A DNA stretch of 36,289 nucleotides, taken from NCBI GenBank assembly GCA_017453725.1, contig JAFTEJ010000072.1, forward strand, positions 1-36,289, given 5' to 3'. The position numbers and the translations under genes were made by a program. This document shows, piece after piece, positions 7,989 through 17,550 of this stretch; positions within the stretch are counted from its first letter, which is position 1; the number at the start of each line of letters is the position of its first letter. Origin of the DNA: Clostridia bacterium. Lineage in GTDB: Bacteria > Bacillota > Clostridia > Oscillospirales > RGIG8002. The notes under the pieces are model-generated. The model did no database searches. It was not told the DNA's origin and saw only the letters and a program-made list of their open reading frames with translations.

Positions 7989-10900
7989 TTATGCGATGTC
8001 CGCAACAAAGCCGCTGACGGAAATCACGCCGTTGGCGTCGACAACGCCCTGCGCACTCATGACCTCGCCGTCGGCGAAGAACCAGACGGTGTAGGTCTCG
8101 CCGGCGCGGCTCGGGCTGAGCTGAGCGCTGAGGGTCAGCGTGCCGGCGTAGCAGCGGCTTTCGAACGTAACGCTCTTGAAGAGGACGAGGTTGTTGCCCT
8201 CGCTGTCTCTCGCGGCGCGGAGCAGCGCAAGGTAGGAAGGCTTGCCGGCCTTGACTTCCTCAACCTTCACAACGGGGTCGATGCCGATATAGAACTCGCC
8301 GGTCAGCGAGATTCCGGAGGCGGCGTCAGCCACGGTGCATTCCTCGGTGTTGCTCGCGATGACGACCGTGACGTTAACGGTGACGGTCTTGTAGCACTCG
8401 GCGTCGGCCGGAGTGAAGACTGCCGCGAAGGTGCTGCCGGACTGTTCCGCGTCGGGAATCAGATCCGGATCGGCCCAAGCCCAAGCGCCTTCGACGCTCG
8501 CTTCGCCGCCGATGAGCTGCGCGGAGCCGAGCTTGTCGCCGATCATAATGGTAACGTCGGCGGGGTTGACGGAGATGACCGGAGTCGCCTTGTCAATCGC
8601 GGCGGTGGGTTCGCTGACGAGCGTTCCCTCGTAGTTCGCGGCGGTGACGGAAACGGTCAGGGCCGTGCCGATGTCGCTCGCGACGACGGTGTATTCGGAG
8701 CCGGTGCCGACTTCCTCTTCGCCGTTGCTCCAGACGTATGTCAGCTCGCCGGGCTCGTCGCCGATGCCGGTGACTGCCGCGGTCAGGGTCGCGCCGAACA
8801 CGGCTTCGCCCTCGATTGCGACTTCACCCGTAACGGGAGCCTTCGCGGTCTTTACGACCAGCGGCGTGGACGGCGCGGAGGGGTTGTATCCGCCGATGGC
8901 GGCGACTCTCGCGTAGAAGGTGTATTCGGTGTTGGCTTCGAGTCCGGTATACTCGGTGACGCCGGACCACTCGCCGTCCTCGCCCATTCTGTATTCGATG
9001 CTGTCGGGACCGAGATTCAGCGTGATGCTGTTATAGGTGACCGAAGCGACGGTCGGAGCCGCGGGGGCTTCCGGAGTCGCGGCGGCAACGAGTCCCGCGG
9101 CGGCGTCCGCGATCTGAGCGGCGGTGGCGTCCTTGTTGTAGTAAACAGTCATAGCGTCGGCGTATCCGTCGAGGCCGAGGTCCTTATACTGAACGAGCGC
9201 GGTCTTCAGCGCGGCGCGGTCGATGCCTTCGTAGAGGATGACCTGCCAGCCGTAGATGTCCTTGTTGACGTTGGCGTAAAGCTCAAAGACGCCGTACTTC
9301 GCCTTTTCCCTGATCTGCTCCTTGGTCCAGTCGCCGTACCAGTCGCCGTTACCGCCCTCAACGATTTCATCCATATAGTAGGTGAAGTAACCGTCGACGT
9401 ACTGCGGCAGGTGCTGCTTGGTAAGCATACCGCTCCAGTTCTCTTTGCCGACGCCGTCCTTATAAGCGATGGCCATCTGATCCAGCTTGTTGGTGACGGC
9501 GTTCTCGACCTGGAATCTGAACGCGATAATATCGTTGAGCGTATAGCCGCCGAGCATAGCGATGAGGTCTTTCCCATCAAAGGATTCAACCCTACCGAAA
9601 TAGCAGTCAAACTCGTTGAAGCCGGTAGTCAACGGGTCGACCATCTTGGCGGGAACGAAGCCCCAGCTTCCGTTGGTAAGCGAATACTTCATTCCTCTCT
9701 CGGTCTTGACGAAGATGCATCCGCCCTTGTCGTACGCCGGGAACTGATCCATTTCTTCCTGAGTGAAGATGCTGAAGCCGGGGACGTCGACGATCGCGGC
9801 GTCGGGATCCTTGTAGCCGTAAAGAACCTCAAGGATTCTATCGGTCATCTCTTCGTAATCGGAGGTATAGTTCGCGGCGAGCGAAAGCTCGGCAGCCTCC
9901 GCAACGAGGGCGGAATATCTGCCGTCGATATCGAACGCCTGCAGCATGGCAACAGCGGCGGCGAGCTTCTCAGCGTCTTCGGCGGTGGCGTTGTTGAGTT
10001 CCTTGTATCCGCGGAAATCGGAGAAGGTGATGGTCGTTCCGTCTTCGACGCCATAGGCTTCGATGATGAGAACGATAGCCAGATCAAGGTCGTCCTGTGT
10101 GAAGGCCTTGCCCCACCACGCCTTCTCGAAGTAGCTGAACGGGATATTGATATAGCCGTCTTCGGCTACGAATTCGGGCTTGATGCGGAGCGCGTACTGC
10201 TCGAACGAATGTCCGGCGCAGTTGGAGAGACCTATCAGGATTCTCTCAACGGAGCCGTCGGCTTCGAGCTTGAAGCGGATGCCGTCCGCCTTGGAAAGCC
10301 CGGTCGCGTCAAACGCGGGATAGCCGTAGTTGGCTTCGGTGGCGAGCGTTCCGCTGCGGTCCATGTTCTTCCAGCCCATCGACTTGCCCGCGAAACTGTC
10401 AAGCGCGGTCATGGAGAAGTTGTTATCCGCCTCGAAGGAGGTGGTGTTGGTGAAGTCGCCGGCGTTCCAGACGTTCTCCTTGTTCAGGCCGTCGCCGATG
10501 GAATCGCAGAGCTTGACGCTGTTCGCGTCAACGACGTCATTGACGGCAGCGGTCGTCCAGCCATCGAAGAAGTCGGCGGTCGTGCTCTTTGTGGGCAGCG
10601 CGACGAGGCCGGCGTAGGCGGCGTCGAGGAGCACTATCGCACCCGCGGCGTCTTCATCATATATAGCCCACGCCTCGTCGATGGCGGAAAGGAGCGCTTT
10701 GTAGCTCTTCGTGGTGTAGTTGTACTGCCACGCGTTCACGCAGGCGTCAAACGCGGAATATACGTCTTCGTCGGCAAGCTCTTCAAGGATGAGCATTCTG
10801 ACGACTTTGATGTGATAGCGCAGCTCGTCGAGCGTGGCGTTCGGATTCGTATAAGCCGAATCGGCGGCGCTGACTTCACTGTAATGCGCGTAGCCGGAAT

Positions 10901-11843
10901 CGAAGAAGTCGAGATTGTCCGCCATCGTAAGCAGGGCGTCGAGGTCGGTCTTCGCCTTCTCGTAGCCGAACTTGATCTCGTCGATCGCGTCGTTCAGTCT
11001 CGTGGTGATCGCGTCGATTTCGGACTGAGTGTGGCTCTCGGCGTTCTTGTAGGTATCCTCGGCGGTCTCGATGAGGGAGGCGGTGAACTCCGCCTTCTTC
11101 GCGGCCTGGATGGCTCTGCCTAGCTCGGCGCTGTCAACGCTGCCGTAAGCGTGGAAATCGTCGATGTAGAAGGAAAGGCGCTTGCCGGCCATAGAGGCGG
11201 TGTTCTCAAATCTGATCTGGAACTGATCGATTCCGCCGTAGTAGGTATCGGGGATATCCTGGCAGTCACGCCACCAGCCGCCCGCGGCATCGCCGCCGAC
11301 GAATGTAGTGCCGTACCAACCGGTTTTTGCCCATTCGACAACGTAGTAGTCGCCTTCCCTGTCGGCGGCTCTGAAGTCGATGGCGATCTTCTTCGTGGAG
11401 CTGCCGAAGCAGAAGCTGATGCTTCCGTTGAACGCGACGTCGCCGACGTTGACTATCTTGAATTTGAAGCCGAGCTTGTTGGAAAGATCAACGTCGCCGA
11501 AGGGAGAGAGCCCGTCGATGAGGACGTTCTTTCTCCACTGATCGTACTTATCGGCAGTGGCCATATTGCAGTTGTATCCGCCGTAAGCGTCACCGGTAGC
11601 CGGAACGGTAACGTTGAAGATCGTGTGACCTTCTTCGTCCTTCGTAAACTGCCAGTCGCTGCCGTACTCATAGTTGTCCGAGACCCTCTTGGCCATACGG
11701 TCCATCTGAGCGGGCGTGTACTGATTGAAGCCGGGCATCGCCATTTTCACGTATTCGACTGCCGAAGACGTGAAAAGCACGAGTCCGCTTCCCATTGCGA
11801 GCAGCATTGTAACCGCAAGCAATACGCTGAGTAGCTTTTTCAT
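7989..11843 (-). CDS. Large secreted surface protein (1284 aa), paralogue of 1490-7285: three CBM-like modules, FIVAR-like helices, FN3/Ig stalk, same C-terminal domain
   Basis: SD AGGAGG; signal peptide MKKLLSVLLAVTMLLAMGSGLVLFTSSA; one copy of the GWTT...IEAYG repeat; PEAPAAPTV...YTFYARV FN3; C-terminal LLRAA..LVLFK..RAGETYTVWFF matches the paralogue. Confidence 0.9.
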   Translation of the reverse strand: MKKLLSVLLAVTMLLAMGSGLVLFTSSAVEYVKMAMPGFNQYTPAQMDRMAKRVSDNYEYGSDWQFTKDEEGHTIFNVTVPATGDAYGGYNCNMATADKYDQWRKNVLIDGLSPFGDVDLSNKLGFKFKIVNVGDVAFNGSISFCFGSSTKKIAIDFRAADREGDYYVVEWAKTGWYGTTFVGGDAAGGWWRDCQDIPDTYYGGIDQFQIRFENTASMAGKRLSFYIDDFHAYGSVDSAELGRAIQAAKKAEFTASLIETAEDTYKNAESHTQSEIDAITTRLNDAIDEIKFGYEKAKTDLDALLTMADNLDFFDSGYAHYSEVSAADSAYTNPNATLDELRYHIKVVRMLILEELADEDVYSAFDACVNAWQYNYTTKSYKALLSAIDEAWAIYDEDAAGAIVLLDAAYAGLVALPTKSTTADFFDGWTTAAVNDVVDANSVKLCDSIGDGLNKENVWNAGDFTNTTSFEADNNFSMTALDSFAGKSMGWKNMDRSGTLATEANYGYPAFDATGLSKADGIRFKLEADGSVERILIGLSNCAGHSFEQYALRIKPEFVAEDGYINIPFSYFEKAWWGKAFTQDDLDLAIVLIIEAYGVEDGTTITFSDFRGYKELNNATAEDAEKLAAAVAMLQAFDIDGRYSALVAEAAELSLAANYTSDYEEMTDRILEVLYGYKDPDAAIVDVPGFSIFTQEEMDQFPAYDKGGCIFVKTERGMKYSLTNGSWGFVPAKMVDPLTTGFNEFDCYFGRVESFDGKDLIAMLGGYTLNDIIAFRFQVENAVTNKLDQMAIAYKDGVGKENWSGMLTKQHLPQYVDGYFTYYMDEIVEGGNGDWYGDWTKEQIREKAKYGVFELYANVNKDIYGWQVILYEGIDRAALKTALVQYKDLGLDGYADAMTVYYNKDATAAQIADAAAGLVAAATPEAPAAPTVASVTYNSITLNLGPDSIEYRMGEDGEWSGVTEYTGLEANTEYTFYARVAAIGGYNPSAPSTPLVVKTAKAPVTGEVAIEGEAVFGATLTAAVTGIGDEPGELTYVWSNGEEEVGTGSEYTVVASDIGTALTVSVTAANYEGTLVSEPTAAIDKATPVISVNPADVTIMIGDKLGSAQLIGGEASVEGAWAWADPDLIPDAEQSGSTFAAVFTPADAECYKTVTVNVTVVIASNTEECTVADAASGISLTGEFYIGIDPVVKVEEVKAGKPSYLALLRAARDSEGNNLVLFKSVTFESRCYAGTLTLSAQLSPSRAGETYTVWFFADGEVMSAQGVVDANGVISVSGFVADIA

Positions 11844-11933: not shown

Positions 11934-12058
11934 CACTTATTTTCAAAGATGATAGAAATATTTTGTAAAATTCGCACATCGCAACACGGAAAGCTGTGTT
12001 TTCGGCATAGCCGCGGCGCGGAAGCGGCAGCGCGGTTGATTCGGCAGGCGGAACCGTC

Positions 12059-12589
12059 CTGTCATTCCGAGGAGCCGCGAACGCGCCTATGAGGAATCCA
12101 CCGGGCAAACGCAGGGCGTTAGGTCTTGGCTCCCTCTGAGGAGGGAACTGTTGAGACTTGCTCCGCAAGTCACGACTGATGGAGAGATAAAGTCAAGCCG
12201 CGATTTCTGCGCGGAGTTTCAGCAGAAACCCGACCGAACGCACCCACGTCTGTCATCCTGAGCGGAGCGACCGCAGAGAGCGCAGTCGAAGGATCCTGAA
12301 GGTAACGGCATTGTAAAAGAAAAAGTGCGCATATGAAAACGTGAGTTGACCTTTCGCTTTCTTGTGCACACTCTTTGTTTTTGTTGTTGCTTTTGTCGGC
12401 GTGCTTCTGCTTTTGTCGGCTAACTTTTCCTTTACGGATCGCTCGTCTTTAAGATCCTTCGACTTCGCGGGCTTCGCCCGCTCCGCTCAGGATGACAGAC
12501 GCCGACTTCGTCGGCGACGCCTCATCCGTCACTCGCGCACTACGTTCGCTCGTGCCGCCTTCCCCTCAAGGGGAAGGCTTTCGACGCCC
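12059..12589. repeat. REP/REPIN-like cluster including a TGTCATCCTGAGC inverted doublet
   Basis: CGTCTGTCATCCTGAGCGGAGCG...AGTCGAAGGATC (12247-12295) is inverted against GATCCTTCGACT...CGCTCCGCTCAGGATGACAGACG (12453-12501) around a ~157-bp spacer; further elements at 12059-12099, 12128-12186 and 12512-12589 match copies at 7725, 1311 and 1211. Confidence 0.85.
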
Positions 12590-12618
12590 GCTCGCATAAG
12601 CAAGGAAGCGGCGCCTTT

Positions 12619-13172
12619 AGGGCGTGCAAATCAGGGATACGCCGGTCTTAAAAAGGATCTTTTCGCGCCGGTCTGCGTTGAAAGCGCTCGGAAACGGCTG
12701 CTGGCCGGCGAGGACAATACGCCTGATAAACGAATAAATCCGGTGCTTTCCGGTTTGTCGTCCTCGGCGGGCGTCAGCCCGCTGTCGTCCTCCGCGCCGG
12801 AAACCCCTCTGATTTCTATCGTTTTCAGGTGCGGAGCAGTTTTGAAAGACGAGAATTATTCTCAGCCGAAGCCGCAAAACGCAGGCAACCCTTCGGTTGT
12901 CAAGGCTTTGCGGCAAAAGATGGGGATAATTCTCCCTTTCAAAACCGTGTTGTCCTCACCGGCAATCAGCCACCAGTATTCCTTCACGCTTTCGCCTTGC
13001 CCGACACAAAAATCTCTCTTTTTAAGATGCGAAGCAGTTTTGAACGAGATATTTATCGTTCAGGCAAAACAACAAAACAGCGGTCATACTTGATGTATGA
13101 TCGCTGTTTTTTGTGAAGCTTGGGCGGGAAATAGCCGTTCAAAAACCGACTTATCCATGATTTGCACGCCCT
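12619..13172. mobile_element. Non-autonomous MITE-like or structured element with 28-bp terminal inverted repeats and nested internal inverted repeats
   Basis: Left end AGGGCGTGCAAATCAGGGATACGCCGGT vs right end (reverse complement) AGGGCGTGCAAATCATGGATAAGTCGGT, 25/28 match; TTT on both flanks; no credible coding capacity. Mobility is inferred, not shown. Confidence 0.6.
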
Positions 13173-13207
13173 TTTGCCGACACAGCGTTAAAAGAACGGT
13201 GAAATCT

Positions 13208-13275: not shown

Positions 13276-16200
13276 TTATCGCGGAAGGGTTATAAGACCG
13301 ACCGCCGCGCGAAGAATATAAAGCGCGTCGCCCACGGTCACTTCGCCGTCTTTGTCAATATCGCAGCAAGCGATCATATACGGCGTCTCTTCCTTTATCT
13401 TAGCGGCGATACGCAGGGCGGCCAACGCGTCCGAAACGGTGATTACGCCGTCGCCGTCAGGGTCGCCGAGGACCGCGACCGGGCCCGCGTTGACGGTGAA
13501 GCCGATCGTGATCTCTTTATCGCGGTTGGTAACCTTAAGAACGTATTCGCCCGACTCGCTGACGGTTACTCCGGATCCGACGGACACGCCGTTGAGCTCT
13601 CCCCTGCCGACGTCCCAGGTGATAGTGACGGGCGCGTCATATACGCCGCCGTCCTCAACGCCTGTAACTATGGGCATTTCCGCTTCATCCTGATACGCGA
13701 CAAGGTCGTAATAGTAAACGCCGGTGGTCGTTTTGCCCGCGCCGGTGACGCCGATTATCTCCAACTTTGAAAGGTCGAGCCTTTCGTCTCCGCTGACGCG
13801 CACGAAATCCTTGAACGGCGCGGTGATTTCAGCTTTGTCGGCGCTTATCGATCCGACGTTGAACTTATAGAGCGTATCCCCGTTCTCGCCGGTATAGCCG
13901 ATAAGAATATCGCTGTCGTTGACGTCCTTGGTGGAATAGGTCTTGAATTTCAGCCCGGTATAATCGGTCATGTCGGCGACAAACGGGTTCTTGATAACTT
14001 CGTCTCCGACCTTGTTGCTGAATTCCCACTTTGTGCGCGTTGAGTATACGCAGAGGGCGTTATGGGTAACCCCGGCGTCGGTAACGTCGCGCATCGTGGC
14101 GCGGCAGGTAGTGACGGTCATAAGCGACGTATCCGAAGTCTGCCACGGCTTGAAACCGAAGATCTCGTTATCCTTGAGCGCGACAGCGCAGCGGACCGTT
14201 CTCGCGGCTGCGTCAACGTCCGCCTGATCGGCGGTGTATATCCTCGCGAGTTTCTTATACTTGTTCCTGACGCTTTCGAGGACTCCCCACGAACGGGCGG
14301 AATAATCATCGGGATCCGCCTCGGACGCGGCGAGAAGCGCGGCTTCGAGCTCCGAAACGTCAAGGCTTCCGGTGCCGAGATCCCAGCAAAGCGTATTCGC
14401 CTTCGCGTGGAAGGTTATGCCGTAAACCTTCGTGCCGTCAGCGGCGAAAACGGCGTCATGAACGGCGTTGCACTTCTCCTGTCTGCCGTTGAGAGTGCGG
14501 AGGTATTCGCCGTTCGCGGTGTAAAGTCTGCCGTAGCCGTCAAGGCTCATCAGAAGTATCATCTTGCCGTCCGGAGACCAGCGCGCCGTCGGAACGGCCT
14601 GCATAAAGCCGCCCATTACCGAAACGAGCTTGCCGGAGACGGCGTCAAAGAGTCTGCCGCCGTCGGCGCTTCCGCTGACAAGCAGCCTCGTTCCGTCCGG
14701 CGAGAACTCGCAGGTGCGGATCGAAGCGGAACTGACGTTCGCGGCCTCGTACTTCATCGTCTTGCCGGCGACGTCGTAAACGAATATTTTTCCGCCCTCG
14801 TCGGTCGTTGCGAGCAGCGAGCCGTCCGGAGACCACGCAAGGCCTCTGGCGCAGCGGATATGATCGCTGAAGGAGGCGTATTCGCTCAAGGCGCTGCCGT
14901 TTACTATATTGTATATGATTATCTTCCCGTTCGCGCAGGCGGCGGCAAGCTTGGTGCCGTCCGGCGAAAGCTTCAGGGTTCTGACGTTGCTGCCGGTAAA
15001 CGGGCCTTCGGTCACGGCGCCGCTCGAGGCGTCCATAATATACAGGTATTGCGATACGTCCTTTGAGGGAATAATGCCGGCGTTATCGCCCTCATTGGTG
15101 ATCCTGCCGCCCGCAAAGAGCTTACTGCCGTCCTGATTGAACGCGACCGCCTCTACGTAAAGGTTAGTGGATCTGCCGGTACTGAGTCTCCCGAAGGCGG
15201 GATTCGACAGCACGACGACGTACCCGCCGCGGGACGCCACGGCAAGCTTGCTGCCGTCGTTGCTGAAAAGAAGCTTGGAGATCTCGTTATATCCGCAGCC
15301 GTTACTCCTGAGCAACGAGCCGTCCGACGCGTCGGTGAGGTACGCCGTTCCCCTGTCCGCCGAAGCGACGTATTTGCCGTCCGGAGAGACGTCGAGAGCG
15401 CACATCCAGTTGCTGCCGGTGACCGCTTTCGACGGAGTAAGGATCTCGTCGTCATACGCGGTGACCTCCGAAATCTCGCCGGCGCGTTTGTAAACGCGGA
15501 CGTAATCGACGTACATAAACGTTTCGGCAGCCATATCGCTGTAGACCTGATTGCTGCCGGGTCCCTTGACGGAAACGTTAAGTATAAGATAGTGCGGGTT
15601 ATCGCCGAAGCCCCAGCGCAGCTCGTCGGTCTTCAGCAGCATCGACATATAAAGCATTCCGTCGATATAGCTTCTCGCCTGCGTTTCGTCCCATTCGACC
15701 GTGTAGGTATGATAATCATTCGAGTATTTTTCCTTGTTCTCGTTATATATGGTCGTTCCCTTCGCGGCGTGGATCATATAATCGTTGCTGGTATCACTGC
15801 CGTAGAGGTTGCCCTGATAGGTGAACCAGTGGTTCGTCGCGTAAACCGCGTAAGCGTCGCTGGAGTTATCGTTTATATCGTATTCGACCATATCGAGCTC
15901 TCCGTTGTACGGCCAGTTGCCGTACTGCCCCATCGCCCAGAACGCCGGCCACGAACGTTTGCCGTCCGTCATCTTGGCTCGCATCTCGATCTTGCCGTAG
16001 GTCACGCCGTAGGTGCCTTCGGTGTCGATCCACGCGGATGTGGCGTGATATCCGTTATATTCCTCCTTGGCGGTCCTTATAACGAGATTGCCGTCCTGGA
16101 GGTAAAGGTTGTTTGCGTCGTCGCGGTGATACTGCGGTTCGGTGTCGCCTCTCGTGTGCCCGACGGCGGGGATCCACTTTGTACGGTCAAGCGACGTGCC

Positions 16201-17550
16201 GTTGAACTCGTCACCCCAGACCTCGACCCATTCATCGGAAATGCACTTATAGACGTCCCACTCATAAGCGGAGCTGACGAGCGCGGGATTTCCGCTACTG
16301 ATACCGAGATACTTGCTGCCGCTCTTGAAGACGAATCTGCCGTTGCTTACGGTCACGGACCATTTCTGATAGGAATTATCTAGATCCTCGTTGTGCTCGA
16401 GCGTAAGCTTTCCGTTTTCGATAATACCGAGCGTCCTGTCGCGCGTCATACAAGCGGAGGTACCCTGGTTGATGAGCTTATAATCGCCGCTGCGCAGCTG
16501 CTTGTAGATCTGCCACTGCTGGGTCACGTCGCAGCCGTTGCCGACGCTCATCGAAAACGACTGGTCAGAAGACGTCCAGTCGAGTCTGGTGCTCGACGCC
16601 TGCTTTTTGAAGACGGTTTCGGTAAGCTCCGGTCCCCAAGTGACGACCTTTCCGGTCGCGGGATCGGAAATCTTATACACGTGGTCGTTATCGATCTCGC
16701 TGAGCGCGGTGACCTTCACTTCTTCATAAACGCGGTCGTCTCTCTCCACCGTTTCGGCGAAGGCGTTGACGCCGGAAATGTATACGCTCGTTCCCGGAAC
16801 GCCCGAAACTCCGAATCCGATGCGGTTCATAGCGCCCGAAAGGTCGATCTTTGAATCGGGAGTCGTCACTTCCGGATAGAATATCTCCCACGGGATATAA
16901 ACGTAGCCCTCTTTCGTGACAGGGACGTCGTAAACCGAAAGCAGCTCCTCTGTTCCGGCGTTAAGCTTGCCGACGTAGACCTCCAACCCGAAAATTGCCG
17001 AATAATCGCTCGCGGAAAGCCATATCGCCAGACCGTCAGTGAAGTACATCTCGACGCCGAACGGCGAATAAGCGCCGTCCTCGCCGGGAGCGTTGAAGAA
17101 GGTGCCGTAAGCATCGTCGAGCGTAAGCTTCAACGACTGCGCGGCGCCCGGCGCTTTGACAGCCGTTGTCAGCTCGGCGGCAACGGCAAATCCACGCATA
17201 CTCGCTATCTGCCCGGCCGTCCACTTATCGACGCCGTTGATATCCGTTCCGCCGGAAAGCTCCATAGGGATAAAGCCTTCCATAGCGGCGACGAGGGTTT
17301 CGTAAGCGCCGTCTATCTCGATCTGCGAAGCGGAGTCGTCGATGATAACGGCGTCTGCGGCAAGGAGCTTGCCGTAAAGATACTTTCTCGTCTGCTCGCT
17401 TCCGCCGGAGAAATAAAGCTCGCGAGCTTCATTCAGCTTTTGCTCAAGCTCCGCCTTCGTCGTTGAGGCGGACGCGCTGAACGTGAGTGTTCCGGCAAAA
17501 ATGCCGGCGATCATACAAAAAAGGATAAGTGCCGATATTAGCTTCTTCAT
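13276..17550 (-). CDS. Secreted GH16 glycoside hydrolase: FIVAR, CBM-like, ricin-type (CBM13-like), GH16, WD40 propeller, FIVAR, CBM-like, Ig-like, dockerin
   Basis: Signal peptide; QQWQI/QKWSV ricin motifs; WGDEFNG, WPAFW, catalytic ELDMVE (15883-15900), YVDYVRVY; repeated (F/W)SPDG blades; duplicated Ca-loop GDPDGDGVITVSDAL...DIDKDGEVTVGDAL; SD GGAGGT. Confidence 0.9.
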   Translation of the reverse strand: MKKLISALILFCMIAGIFAGTLTFSASASTTKAELEQKLNEARELYFSGGSEQTRKYLYGKLLAADAVIIDDSASQIEIDGAYETLVAAMEGFIPMELSGGTDINGVDKWTAGQIASMRGFAVAAELTTAVKAPGAAQSLKLTLDDAYGTFFNAPGEDGAYSPFGVEMYFTDGLAIWLSASDYSAIFGLEVYVGKLNAGTEELLSVYDVPVTKEGYVYIPWEIFYPEVTTPDSKIDLSGAMNRIGFGVSGVPGTSVYISGVNAFAETVERDDRVYEEVKVTALSEIDNDHVYKISDPATGKVVTWGPELTETVFKKQASSTRLDWTSSDQSFSMSVGNGCDVTQQWQIYKQLRSGDYKLINQGTSACMTRDRTLGIIENGKLTLEHNEDLDNSYQKWSVTVSNGRFVFKSGSKYLGISSGNPALVSSAYEWDVYKCISDEWVEVWGDEFNGTSLDRTKWIPAVGHTRGDTEPQYHRDDANNLYLQDGNLVIRTAKEEYNGYHATSAWIDTEGTYGVTYGKIEMRAKMTDGKRSWPAFWAMGQYGNWPYNGELDMVEYDINDNSSDAYAVYATNHWFTYQGNLYGSDTSNDYMIHAAKGTTIYNENKEKYSNDYHTYTVEWDETQARSYIDGMLYMSMLLKTDELRWGFGDNPHYLILNVSVKGPGSNQVYSDMAAETFMYVDYVRVYKRAGEISEVTAYDDEILTPSKAVTGSNWMCALDVSPDGKYVASADRGTAYLTDASDGSLLRSNGCGYNEISKLLFSNDGSKLAVASRGGYVVVLSNPAFGRLSTGRSTNLYVEAVAFNQDGSKLFAGGRITNEGDNAGIIPSKDVSQYLYIMDASSGAVTEGPFTGSNVRTLKLSPDGTKLAAACANGKIIIYNIVNGSALSEYASFSDHIRCARGLAWSPDGSLLATTDEGGKIFVYDVAGKTMKYEAANVSSASIRTCEFSPDGTRLLVSGSADGGRLFDAVSGKLVSVMGGFMQAVPTARWSPDGKMILLMSLDGYGRLYTANGEYLRTLNGRQEKCNAVHDAVFAADGTKVYGITFHAKANTLCWDLGTGSLDVSELEAALLAASEADPDDYSARSWGVLESVRNKYKKLARIYTADQADVDAAARTVRCAVALKDNEIFGFKPWQTSDTSLMTVTTCRATMRDVTDAGVTHNALCVYSTRTKWEFSNKVGDEVIKNPFVADMTDYTGLKFKTYSTKDVNDSDILIGYTGENGDTLYKFNVGSISADKAEITAPFKDFVRVSGDERLDLSKLEIIGVTGAGKTTTGVYYYDLVAYQDEAEMPIVTGVEDGGVYDAPVTITWDVGRGELNGVSVGSGVTVSESGEYVLKVTNRDKEITIGFTVNAGPVAVLGDPDGDGVITVSDALAALRIAAKIKEETPYMIACCDIDKDGEVTVGDALYILRAAVGLITLPR

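Follow-up and report, generated by a model that had tools for sequence, protein, structure and literature searches.

A 554-nt self-pairing element from a Clostridia genome is probably two related mobile repeats, one nested in the other

Several kinds of small bacterial repeat fold into hairpins or seek them out as targets. For some hairpin-forming MITEs, such as Correia, we know of no cognate transposase. REPs are 20–40 nt long, carry a conserved 5' tetranucleotide and are linked to a single-copy Y1 gene; the REPIN doublet folds as a hairpin in single strands, and REP hairpins are the sites at which the IS3-family elements IS1397 and ISKpn1 aim their insertion. IS200/IS605 elements by definition have neither terminal inverted repeats nor a target duplication, and the definition of their PATEs adds an orientation linked to replication. 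The review PMC10969869 describes pneumococcal and like repeats as small non-coding sequences present in many copies, which end in inverted repeats and are flanked by short target duplications; their transcripts are predicted to form stable stem-loops, the repeats occur in clusters and within one another, and some resemble terminators. In PMC2817692 a REPIN is a mobile doublet made of two inverted copies of a palindromic unit, and PMC12288879 describes the IS110-family element ISPpu9 as targeting extragenic palindromes, either in the loop or in the body.

The window analysed here is a stretch of 36,289 nt from Clostridia bacterium (assembly GCA_017453725.1, contig JAFTEJ010000072.1), whose genome is a 1.64-Mb bin that is 75% complete. 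The element under study occupies 12619–13172 and is small, non-coding, multicopy and nesting, as are Correia/NEMIS (Neisseria), RUP, BOX and SPRITE (S. pneumoniae), ERIC and bcr1. An earlier note, made from the sequence alone, had described this stretch as a nested hairpin element with a repeated four-way junction, and every feature it named was found in place. The outer stem (12619–12646 with 13145–13172) forms 25 of 28 pairs, the mini-hairpins TGCGAAGCA and TGCGGAGCA lie at 13028–13036 and 12830–12838, and the junction repeat (12822–12846 versus 13020–13044) is identical at 22 of 25 positions. The RNA minimum-energy fold of the + strand has −273.3 kcal/mol, compared with −184.0 ± 6.2 kcal/mol for 100 dinucleotide shuffles (z −14.4), and the − strand gives z −13.1; on neither strand did any of the 100 shuffles equal the element. 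DNA parameters, with only 20 mononucleotide shuffles per strand, gave z −16.8 (+) and −19.6 (−), so that folding both strands, as the note had advised, places z at about −13 to −20. The DNA minimum-energy fold of the + strand contains both mini-hairpins, and arms B, C and D taken as isolated sequences are hairpins of 107–108 nt with energies of −45.7, −51.5 and −53.5 kcal/mol, respectively. The 554-nt self-pairing element is thus confirmed as real. Four ORFs overlap it, none with a Pfam family, and it therefore has no coding capacity.

The same genome carries seven further full copies on other contigs (C19, C22, C29, C56, C70, C79 and C100) that are 268–306 nt long, 92–97% identical and un-nested. 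They correspond to positions 1–75 plus approximately 356–554 of the window element, which is the sole 554-nt copy in the genome. Where arm A is interrupted in the window these copies read ..CGGAATAC-ATACA-GTATTCC.., and the 5' half of this arm (12646–12695, − strand), as far as 12693, is joined directly to its 3' half (12972–13027, − strand). Between the two halves the window copy holds an insert of 276 nt (12696–12971) with an arm / mini-hairpin / arm layout of its own and its own 26-nt inverted ends, which are 85% complementary; its borders are marked by AC at both 12694–12695 and 12972–12973. Stand-alone relatives of this nested unit, at about 77% identity, occur in genomes G003 and G001 (among them L029/L047 and L036) and also in G002. 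One of them (L029, in G003) lies between a promoter-like sequence and a start codon, and another (L036, in G001) has AC on both sides exactly as in the window, AC/AC flanks being present in two of three copies of this family-2 unit. Because the un-nested copies do not contain 12696–12971, and because the insert has its own ends and stand-alone relatives, we place a family-2 unit in the tip of arm A of a family-1 unit. We consider it likely that the window element represents two related mobile repeats, both non-autonomous and members of a single superfamily, of which one has come to lie inside the other. The idea of a mobile element nesting in itself, raised in the earlier note, is upheld in the form of two related units, one inside the other.

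Other loci bear on the history of this composite. Parts of the insert survive elsewhere, those of its right end in C100 and C19 and its left joint in C135 and at a locus in G001; these remnants imply that the composite itself multiplied and then lost internal parts. In the sequence of events that we propose, a family-2 unit would first have inserted into a family-1 unit, at the tip of its arm A, and the composite would then have spread as a composite, with partial internal deletions following (C100, C19). That one unit lies in the arm tip of another is consistent with a preference for hairpin tips. The genome also has half copies and a 60-nt stub consisting solely of ends, and the left terminal sequence of the window element recurs at 31 places in it when up to 4 mismatches are allowed.

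The basic unit of about 277 nt comprises an outer stem of 26–27 bp, which is the paired terminal inverted repeats, an arm of about 108 nt, a 9-nt mini-hairpin and a second arm of about 108 nt. The palindromic mini-hairpin, TGC-GNA-GCA, is the centre of symmetry, and since there are no gaps between neighbouring helices, the fold of a single strand is a four-way junction. In the outer unit the two strands of the outer stem, P1, are 12619–12645 and 13146–13172, the central mini-hairpin is TGC-GAA-GCA (13028–13036) and the second arm is arm D (13037–13145, + strand). In the nested unit the corresponding parts are arm B (12722–12829, − strand), which occupies the position of arm A, the mini-hairpin TGC-GGA-GCA (12830–12838) and arm C (12839–12945, + strand). 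The interior of the unit contains a conserved helix, TTTTTCGYYCA/TGGGCGGAAAA. By eye the tip of arm D resembles a terminator, with a 16-bp stem followed by T6; a simple terminator scan called none of the arm tips, that of arm D included.

A covariance model, R1, comprising the mini-hairpin and one arm, was built from arm D only, using a 25-sequence alignment. The consensus has 37 pairs, 26 of which show compensatory changes. R1 matches arm D (13025–13156) with 108.8 bits on the + strand versus 26.3 bits on the − strand, and arm C (12827–12956, + strand) with 95.1 bits. In both the window's family and the complete genome G041, arm A matches R1 on the opposite strand with 36–60 bits, the matches overlapping at the mini-hairpin; no opposite-strand match from R1 was obtained for arm B. 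The matches of arm A show the unit to be a pseudo-dyad, two anciently duplicated modules inverted around the mini-hairpin with tails that pair as the outer stem, and the two arms are thus inverted homologues, ancient copies of one module.

Each arm prefers the opposite strand, arm D the + and arm A the −. The arm D alignment has 67 G.T versus 8 A.C cells, and of its 25 sequences, 23 have the more stable fold on the + strand under RNA parameters and all 25 under DNA parameters; the consensus energy of the module is −22.6 on + versus −10.1 on −. For arm A the − strand gives the better fold in 17 of 20 elements, and this despite limits chosen to favour the + strand. The earlier note had left the functional strand open on the grounds that wobble-compatible mismatches occur on both strands. 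Such mismatches are indeed found on both, because the arms prefer opposite strands, and the ambiguity drawn from them is answered by that same preference.

The dimensions of the unit are nearly fixed. We examined 28 elements of many genera, of which 24 could be delimited: unit length was 273–280 nt in 16 of these 24, arm A measured 104–112 nt in 21, and P1 was 25–27 nt in most. The tail from a conserved TCAAAAC to the end of the element is about 24–27 nt long. Terminal sequences fall into several unrelated types (GGGCG.., AGCCACTCC.., GGCTG.., GCCGTAAG.. and GGCATCAG..). The arm interiors, said earlier to differ, do so only in part, as arm length, helix layout and several sequence blocks are kept across genera. 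A plain DDE-type MITE would not be expected to conserve its interior so deeply and in so strand-specific a manner, and a MITE reading leaves this without an explanation. The middle base of the mini-hairpin (13032) is A, C, G or T among eight copies that are otherwise 92–97% identical, and public runs show A>G and A>T at this position. We rejected a hypervariable loop base as a unique feature, since it is one of 8 columns among 280 with three or more bases. The tRNA-like look of some tails (GTTCGAATC) was also dropped; a tRNA/tmRNA search in 20 loci found none.

The element is multicopy in all three sister genomes of the genus, and the four genomes together have dozens of copies. The earlier note had named numerous copies sharing the junction as support for its claim, and the search of this genome and its relatives returned them. 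An exact-pattern scan of the species genomes with the 16-nt junction found at least 120 stretches, most of them chance matches because only 15 bases are specified. Among the matches listed, from Clostridia and Oscillospiraceae bins, TCAAAAC lies at a constant +109 to +116 nt in 20 of 28 candidate loci. The order was sampled with 151 genomes from 96 genera; at E ≤ 1e-6, R1 matched 48 of these genomes and 34 of the genera, with copy numbers among the 151 genomes ranging from no match at this threshold to at least 22; in the complete 2.6-Mb genome G041, which has at least 27 elements, it gave 42 matches. Rfam 15 at the gathering threshold had no match in the window and no relevant match in the loci scanned (20 homologous loci, 23 loci in all), and the best sub-threshold match of the element in E-value mode scored 18.8 bits versus a threshold of 130; the element matches no Rfam family. 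Searches of plasmid and phage collections with blastn gave no match, and 64 pattern matches in viral contigs reduced to only 2 weak partial R1 matches. We found no description of the family in a limited, open-access full-text search of the literature. The family to which the element belongs is large, occurs in Clostridia of rumen and gut, and appears not to have been described before.

Some further observations were made during these searches. One viral contig (L295:2470–2590) contains, between genes of a phage-like contig, a miniature version consisting of a short hairpin, TGCGAAGCA, then GTTTTGACACCT...AGGTGTCAAAA and a T run (R1, 35 bits), which may be a minimal relative of the junction. 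Many copies in the sister genomes stand at contig ends with about 140 nt of repeat; a recombination point there was considered and rejected, and these ends are read as assembler k-mer overlap. Two doublets 6 kb apart in G120 were likewise rejected as a composite transposon, as ordinary genes lie between them.

An empty site was found for one copy. The filled site on C100 of the window's genome reads ..aaatcccgctgcTTT[306 nt]TTcacagcgggattt (..cccgctgcTTT[306 nt]TTcacagcggg..) and the empty site in G001 (contig C71) reads ..gaatcccgccgaTTTcacagcgggattc (..cccgccgaTTTcacagcggg..). This exact pair, of the kind that the earlier note had recommended looking for, shows that the loop of a terminator hairpin was entered with a net gain of the element plus TT. 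The flanks of other copies agree. When the pairing between the left and right 20-nt flanks was compared with that of mismatched left/right controls, 8 of 13 family-1 copies lay past the 5th percentile, as did 8 of 11 family-X copies in G041, and the same dinucleotide stands on both sides in 10 of 13 (TT) and 8 of 11 (AA), respectively. Most copies split terminator stems at their hairpin loops. In the window the putative duplication is TT at 12617–12618 and 13173–13174. Loci C29, C22 and C56, and the flanks of the relatives' copies compared with the window's genome, yielded only non-orthologous terminators or contig breaks and no further empty sites. As two further attempts met non-orthologous terminators, the 2-bp target duplication is advanced tentatively, from one site together with the flank statistics.

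Copies with other end types have TA flanks and lie in AT-rich spacers; TA was seen in end types Y, Z, L057, L200 and L201, and the window's families have TT and AC. Seven TA-type units (L057, L069, L059, L111, L200, L201 and L036, flanks read by eye) precede a ribosome-binding site and start codon by 10–50 nt, a well-folded module facing the gene, and one unit sits between a TPP riboswitch and its gene. At G041 loci L178, L181, L183 and L185–L188, Y and Z units often abut with a common TA between them (..GATGCC-TA-GCCGAAAG..), which suggests repeated insertion at TA beside an existing unit. A locus in G001 (L038:480–720, contig C75) holds a truncated composite copy followed by an intact terminator whose left half, AAAAACGCCGCGTCTTT, also stands at the left border of the copy, so that a 17-nt piece of the target hairpin is duplicated. 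At another locus of G001 (L216, contig C39, about 100631–100717), orthologous to the insertion locus of C29, the terminator reads AAAAGGCGCGCCCT-TT-GGGCGTGCCTTTT; its stem halves resemble the right and left ends of the family-1 element joined by TT, a likeness that may be chance or a relic.

The conserved junction may be recognised by a protein, as the earlier note had supposed. The search that it recommended for transposase genes carrying the same ends found none, and IS30, Y1, IS630 and IS1182 transposases do not co-occur with the element. Element-positive genomes made up 6 of the 24 carriers of IS30, 15 of the 42 with Y1, 3 of the 6 with IS630 and 6 of the 26 with IS1182 among the 151 genomes, which is no enrichment over the base rate of 48/151. 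The four genomes of the window's genus have no match to IS30, IS630 or IS1182, and Y1 is present in one of them (G001). No R1 module lies beside any of 46 transposase loci of the four families, 6 of them Y1. The window's genome has no pair of element ends more than 700 nt apart and none enclosing a gene, and the complete genome G041 has no DDE_3 gene, nor any gene between module-bearing ends apart from secondary IS200-like insertions. These transposase negatives are weak, as most of the genomes are metagenome bins in which insertion sequences are poorly assembled.

Under our proposal the units would be moved in trans by a transposase that makes a 2-bp staggered cut. The flanks are TT in family 1, AA in family X, AC in family 2 and TA in the other end types. 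The enzyme would read the conserved junction and arms, not the fast-changing ends, acting at a fixed distance of about 26 bp, and in the GGGCG/AGCC end types it would pick hairpin tips.

Alternatively, the mobile form could be single-stranded DNA, as with IS200/IS605 PATEs or REPIN-RAYT, and the enzyme of the HUH/Y1 kind; it would read the folded arms and the GNA mini-hairpin and insert the unit into hairpin loops exposed on single strands. The strand-specific folding with G.T pairs speaks for such a route, above all the + strand preference in 25 of 25 sequences with DNA parameters. GNA triloops are stable in single-stranded DNA, the targets are hairpin loops, the tail between the conserved helix and the end of the element is constant in length, and Y1 genes exist in the order (42/151). 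An IS200-like element even occurs within the repeats of G041, where it is inserted in arm D of 3 of 16 X copies (L197:4795–5552, which is G041:C1:2395794–2396551, and also L210 and L211), with a like insertion in another species (L061). It is 758 nt long, encodes a Y1 TnpA with a DHIHML motif, the frameshifts of which may be homopolymer errors of the assembly, and the three copies within X share one insertion point in arm D, which on the opposite strand directly follows the tip hairpin and TTTATTT. As a parent of X it was rejected: 7 of its ten copies lie outside X and its ends are its own and different, which makes it a secondary visitor that favours arm D. The absence of Y1 enrichment among carriers (15/42 versus 48/151) and of modules beside the six Y1 loci also speaks against movement in single strands, as do the 2-bp direct duplications and terminal inverted repeats, neither of which an IS200/IS605 element has. 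With dnaA at 2.15 Mb and the terminus assumed to lie opposite, 6 of the 16 X copies in G041 are co-directional with the replication fork and 10 are not, a lack of orientation bias that argues against an IS200/IS605-like route. Of the ssDNA-folding mobile element proposed at the outset, mobility stands; the duplications, the inverted repeats and the missing fork bias weigh against movement as single-stranded DNA, which we regard as improbable.

A bolder variant gives the four-way junction itself the working part in a new transposition system. The arms and GNA mini-hairpin would then serve as a folded-DNA or RNA scaffold, and a structure-specific enzyme, probably encoded by the host or a phage, would cut about 26 bp away whatever the end sequence and paste the unit into hairpin tips, including those of its own arms. 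If true, this would explain together the free ends and frozen interior, the lack of a travelling classical transposase, and the nesting; we offer it as a speculative possibility with a rather low chance of being right.

A large structured RNA was the other alternative raised at the outset. The unit of about 277 nt would in that case be a functional structured RNA, or an outward-facing RNA pair, kept by the host as a terminator, stabiliser or 5'-UTR device, with its mobility secondary or past. The covariation of 26 of 37 pairs with strand-specific G.U pairs is in keeping with this, as are the fixed geometry across genera, the seven TA-type units upstream of ribosome-binding sites with the module facing the gene, and the unit between the TPP riboswitch and its gene. 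Units were also found in contigs of two RNA libraries, one a 280-nt contig over 12683–12962, which is the nested unit, and another with the un-nested form, joining 12693 to 12974 via TACATA; such contigs are no proof of transcription, because DNA carry-over is possible and they give no strand or transcript-end information, and stretches that they leave uncovered are uninformative. The filled and empty sites are difficult to reconcile with a host-kept RNA, and the same is true of near-identical copies at unrelated loci alongside truncated forms (halves and 60-nt stubs), of copy numbers that within one order reach at least 22 in some genomes while others have no match at E ≤ 1e-6, and of one unit nested in another. 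The unit also matches no Rfam family. We judge this reading to be unlikely, slightly more so than the two just discussed. A chance or locally generated palindrome, for instance by replication slippage, with no family behind it, has nothing in its favour beyond the palindromic nature of the stretch and is refuted by the shuffles (0/100 fold as well), the dozens of copies in the four genus genomes and the homologues in 48 of 151 genomes of the order.

The nested mobile repeats are best compared with bacterial MITEs. They are small and gene-less, with terminal inverted repeats, a fixed-length duplication (from one empty site) and dispersed copies showing insertion polymorphism, and of the definition only a known parent is missing: no insertion sequence with the same ends was found in the window's genome, in the complete G041 or at the 46 transposase loci. 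The element is, accordingly, an unusually constrained variant of bacterial MITEs. Unlike in hairpin MITEs, the arm pair, GNA mini-hairpin and outer stem covary and are constant in length in at least 34 genera although the ends are of unrelated types, insertion is into the loops of terminator hairpins, and the duplicated dinucleotide depends on the family (TT, AA, AC or TA). In comparison with IS630/Tc1-mariner MITEs (Correia- or RUP-like), TA flanks occur here only in other end types, IS630 is found in only 6/151 genomes and DDE_3 is absent from G041. Palindrome-aimed insertion is shared with IS1397, ISKpn1 and ISPpu9; those are autonomous elements with transposase genes and proteobacterial REP targets, whereas the units here are gene-less and enter intrinsic terminators of varied sequence. 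The inverted doublet of palindromic units and its single-strand hairpin fold recall REPIN-RAYT, but the modules are arms of about 108 nt (about 135 nt with tails), direct 2-bp duplications are present, and Y1 genes neither flank nor co-occur with the element (15/42; 6 Y1 loci without a module). Subterminal hairpins and a strand-specific fold are features in common with IS200/IS605 PATEs; all three traits that define PATEs were tested here, and none holds. What sets the element apart from MITEs is the frozen, covarying and strand-specific interior with variable ends, the fixed dimensions and the insertion into terminator loops.

The repeat is widespread and abundant in uncultured rumen and gut Clostridia, where it breaks assemblies and occupies terminators and 5' leaders. 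It can mimic structured-RNA genes, and the model R1 would help to clean annotation and non-coding RNA screens. Two uncommon traits are joined in it: it inserts at hairpin tips, and strong, strand-specific selection on structure acts on its interior while the ends vary. This makes it a tractable case for studying how a transposition machinery can read DNA or RNA shape as opposed to end sequence. It also permits asking whether such units replace the terminators they split.

The surroundings of the element in the window were also inspected. On one side the neighbouring gene (7989–11843) encodes a protein of 1284 aa with no Pfam match at E ≤ 1e-4, and on the other the gene next to the element (13276–17550, − strand) encodes a 1424-aa protein with matches to GH16, a WD40 propeller and dockerin. 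Other repeat families lie beside the element at 12040–12600, in the same 1.4-kb spacer. Blocks 12244–12340 and 12444–12520 have as many as 46 further occurrences in this genome, incomplete as it is, and are also abundant in the sister genomes, and the stretch 12230–12618 folds at −177 kcal/mol. The region 12040–12600 is a cluster of different miniature repeats adjoining the element.
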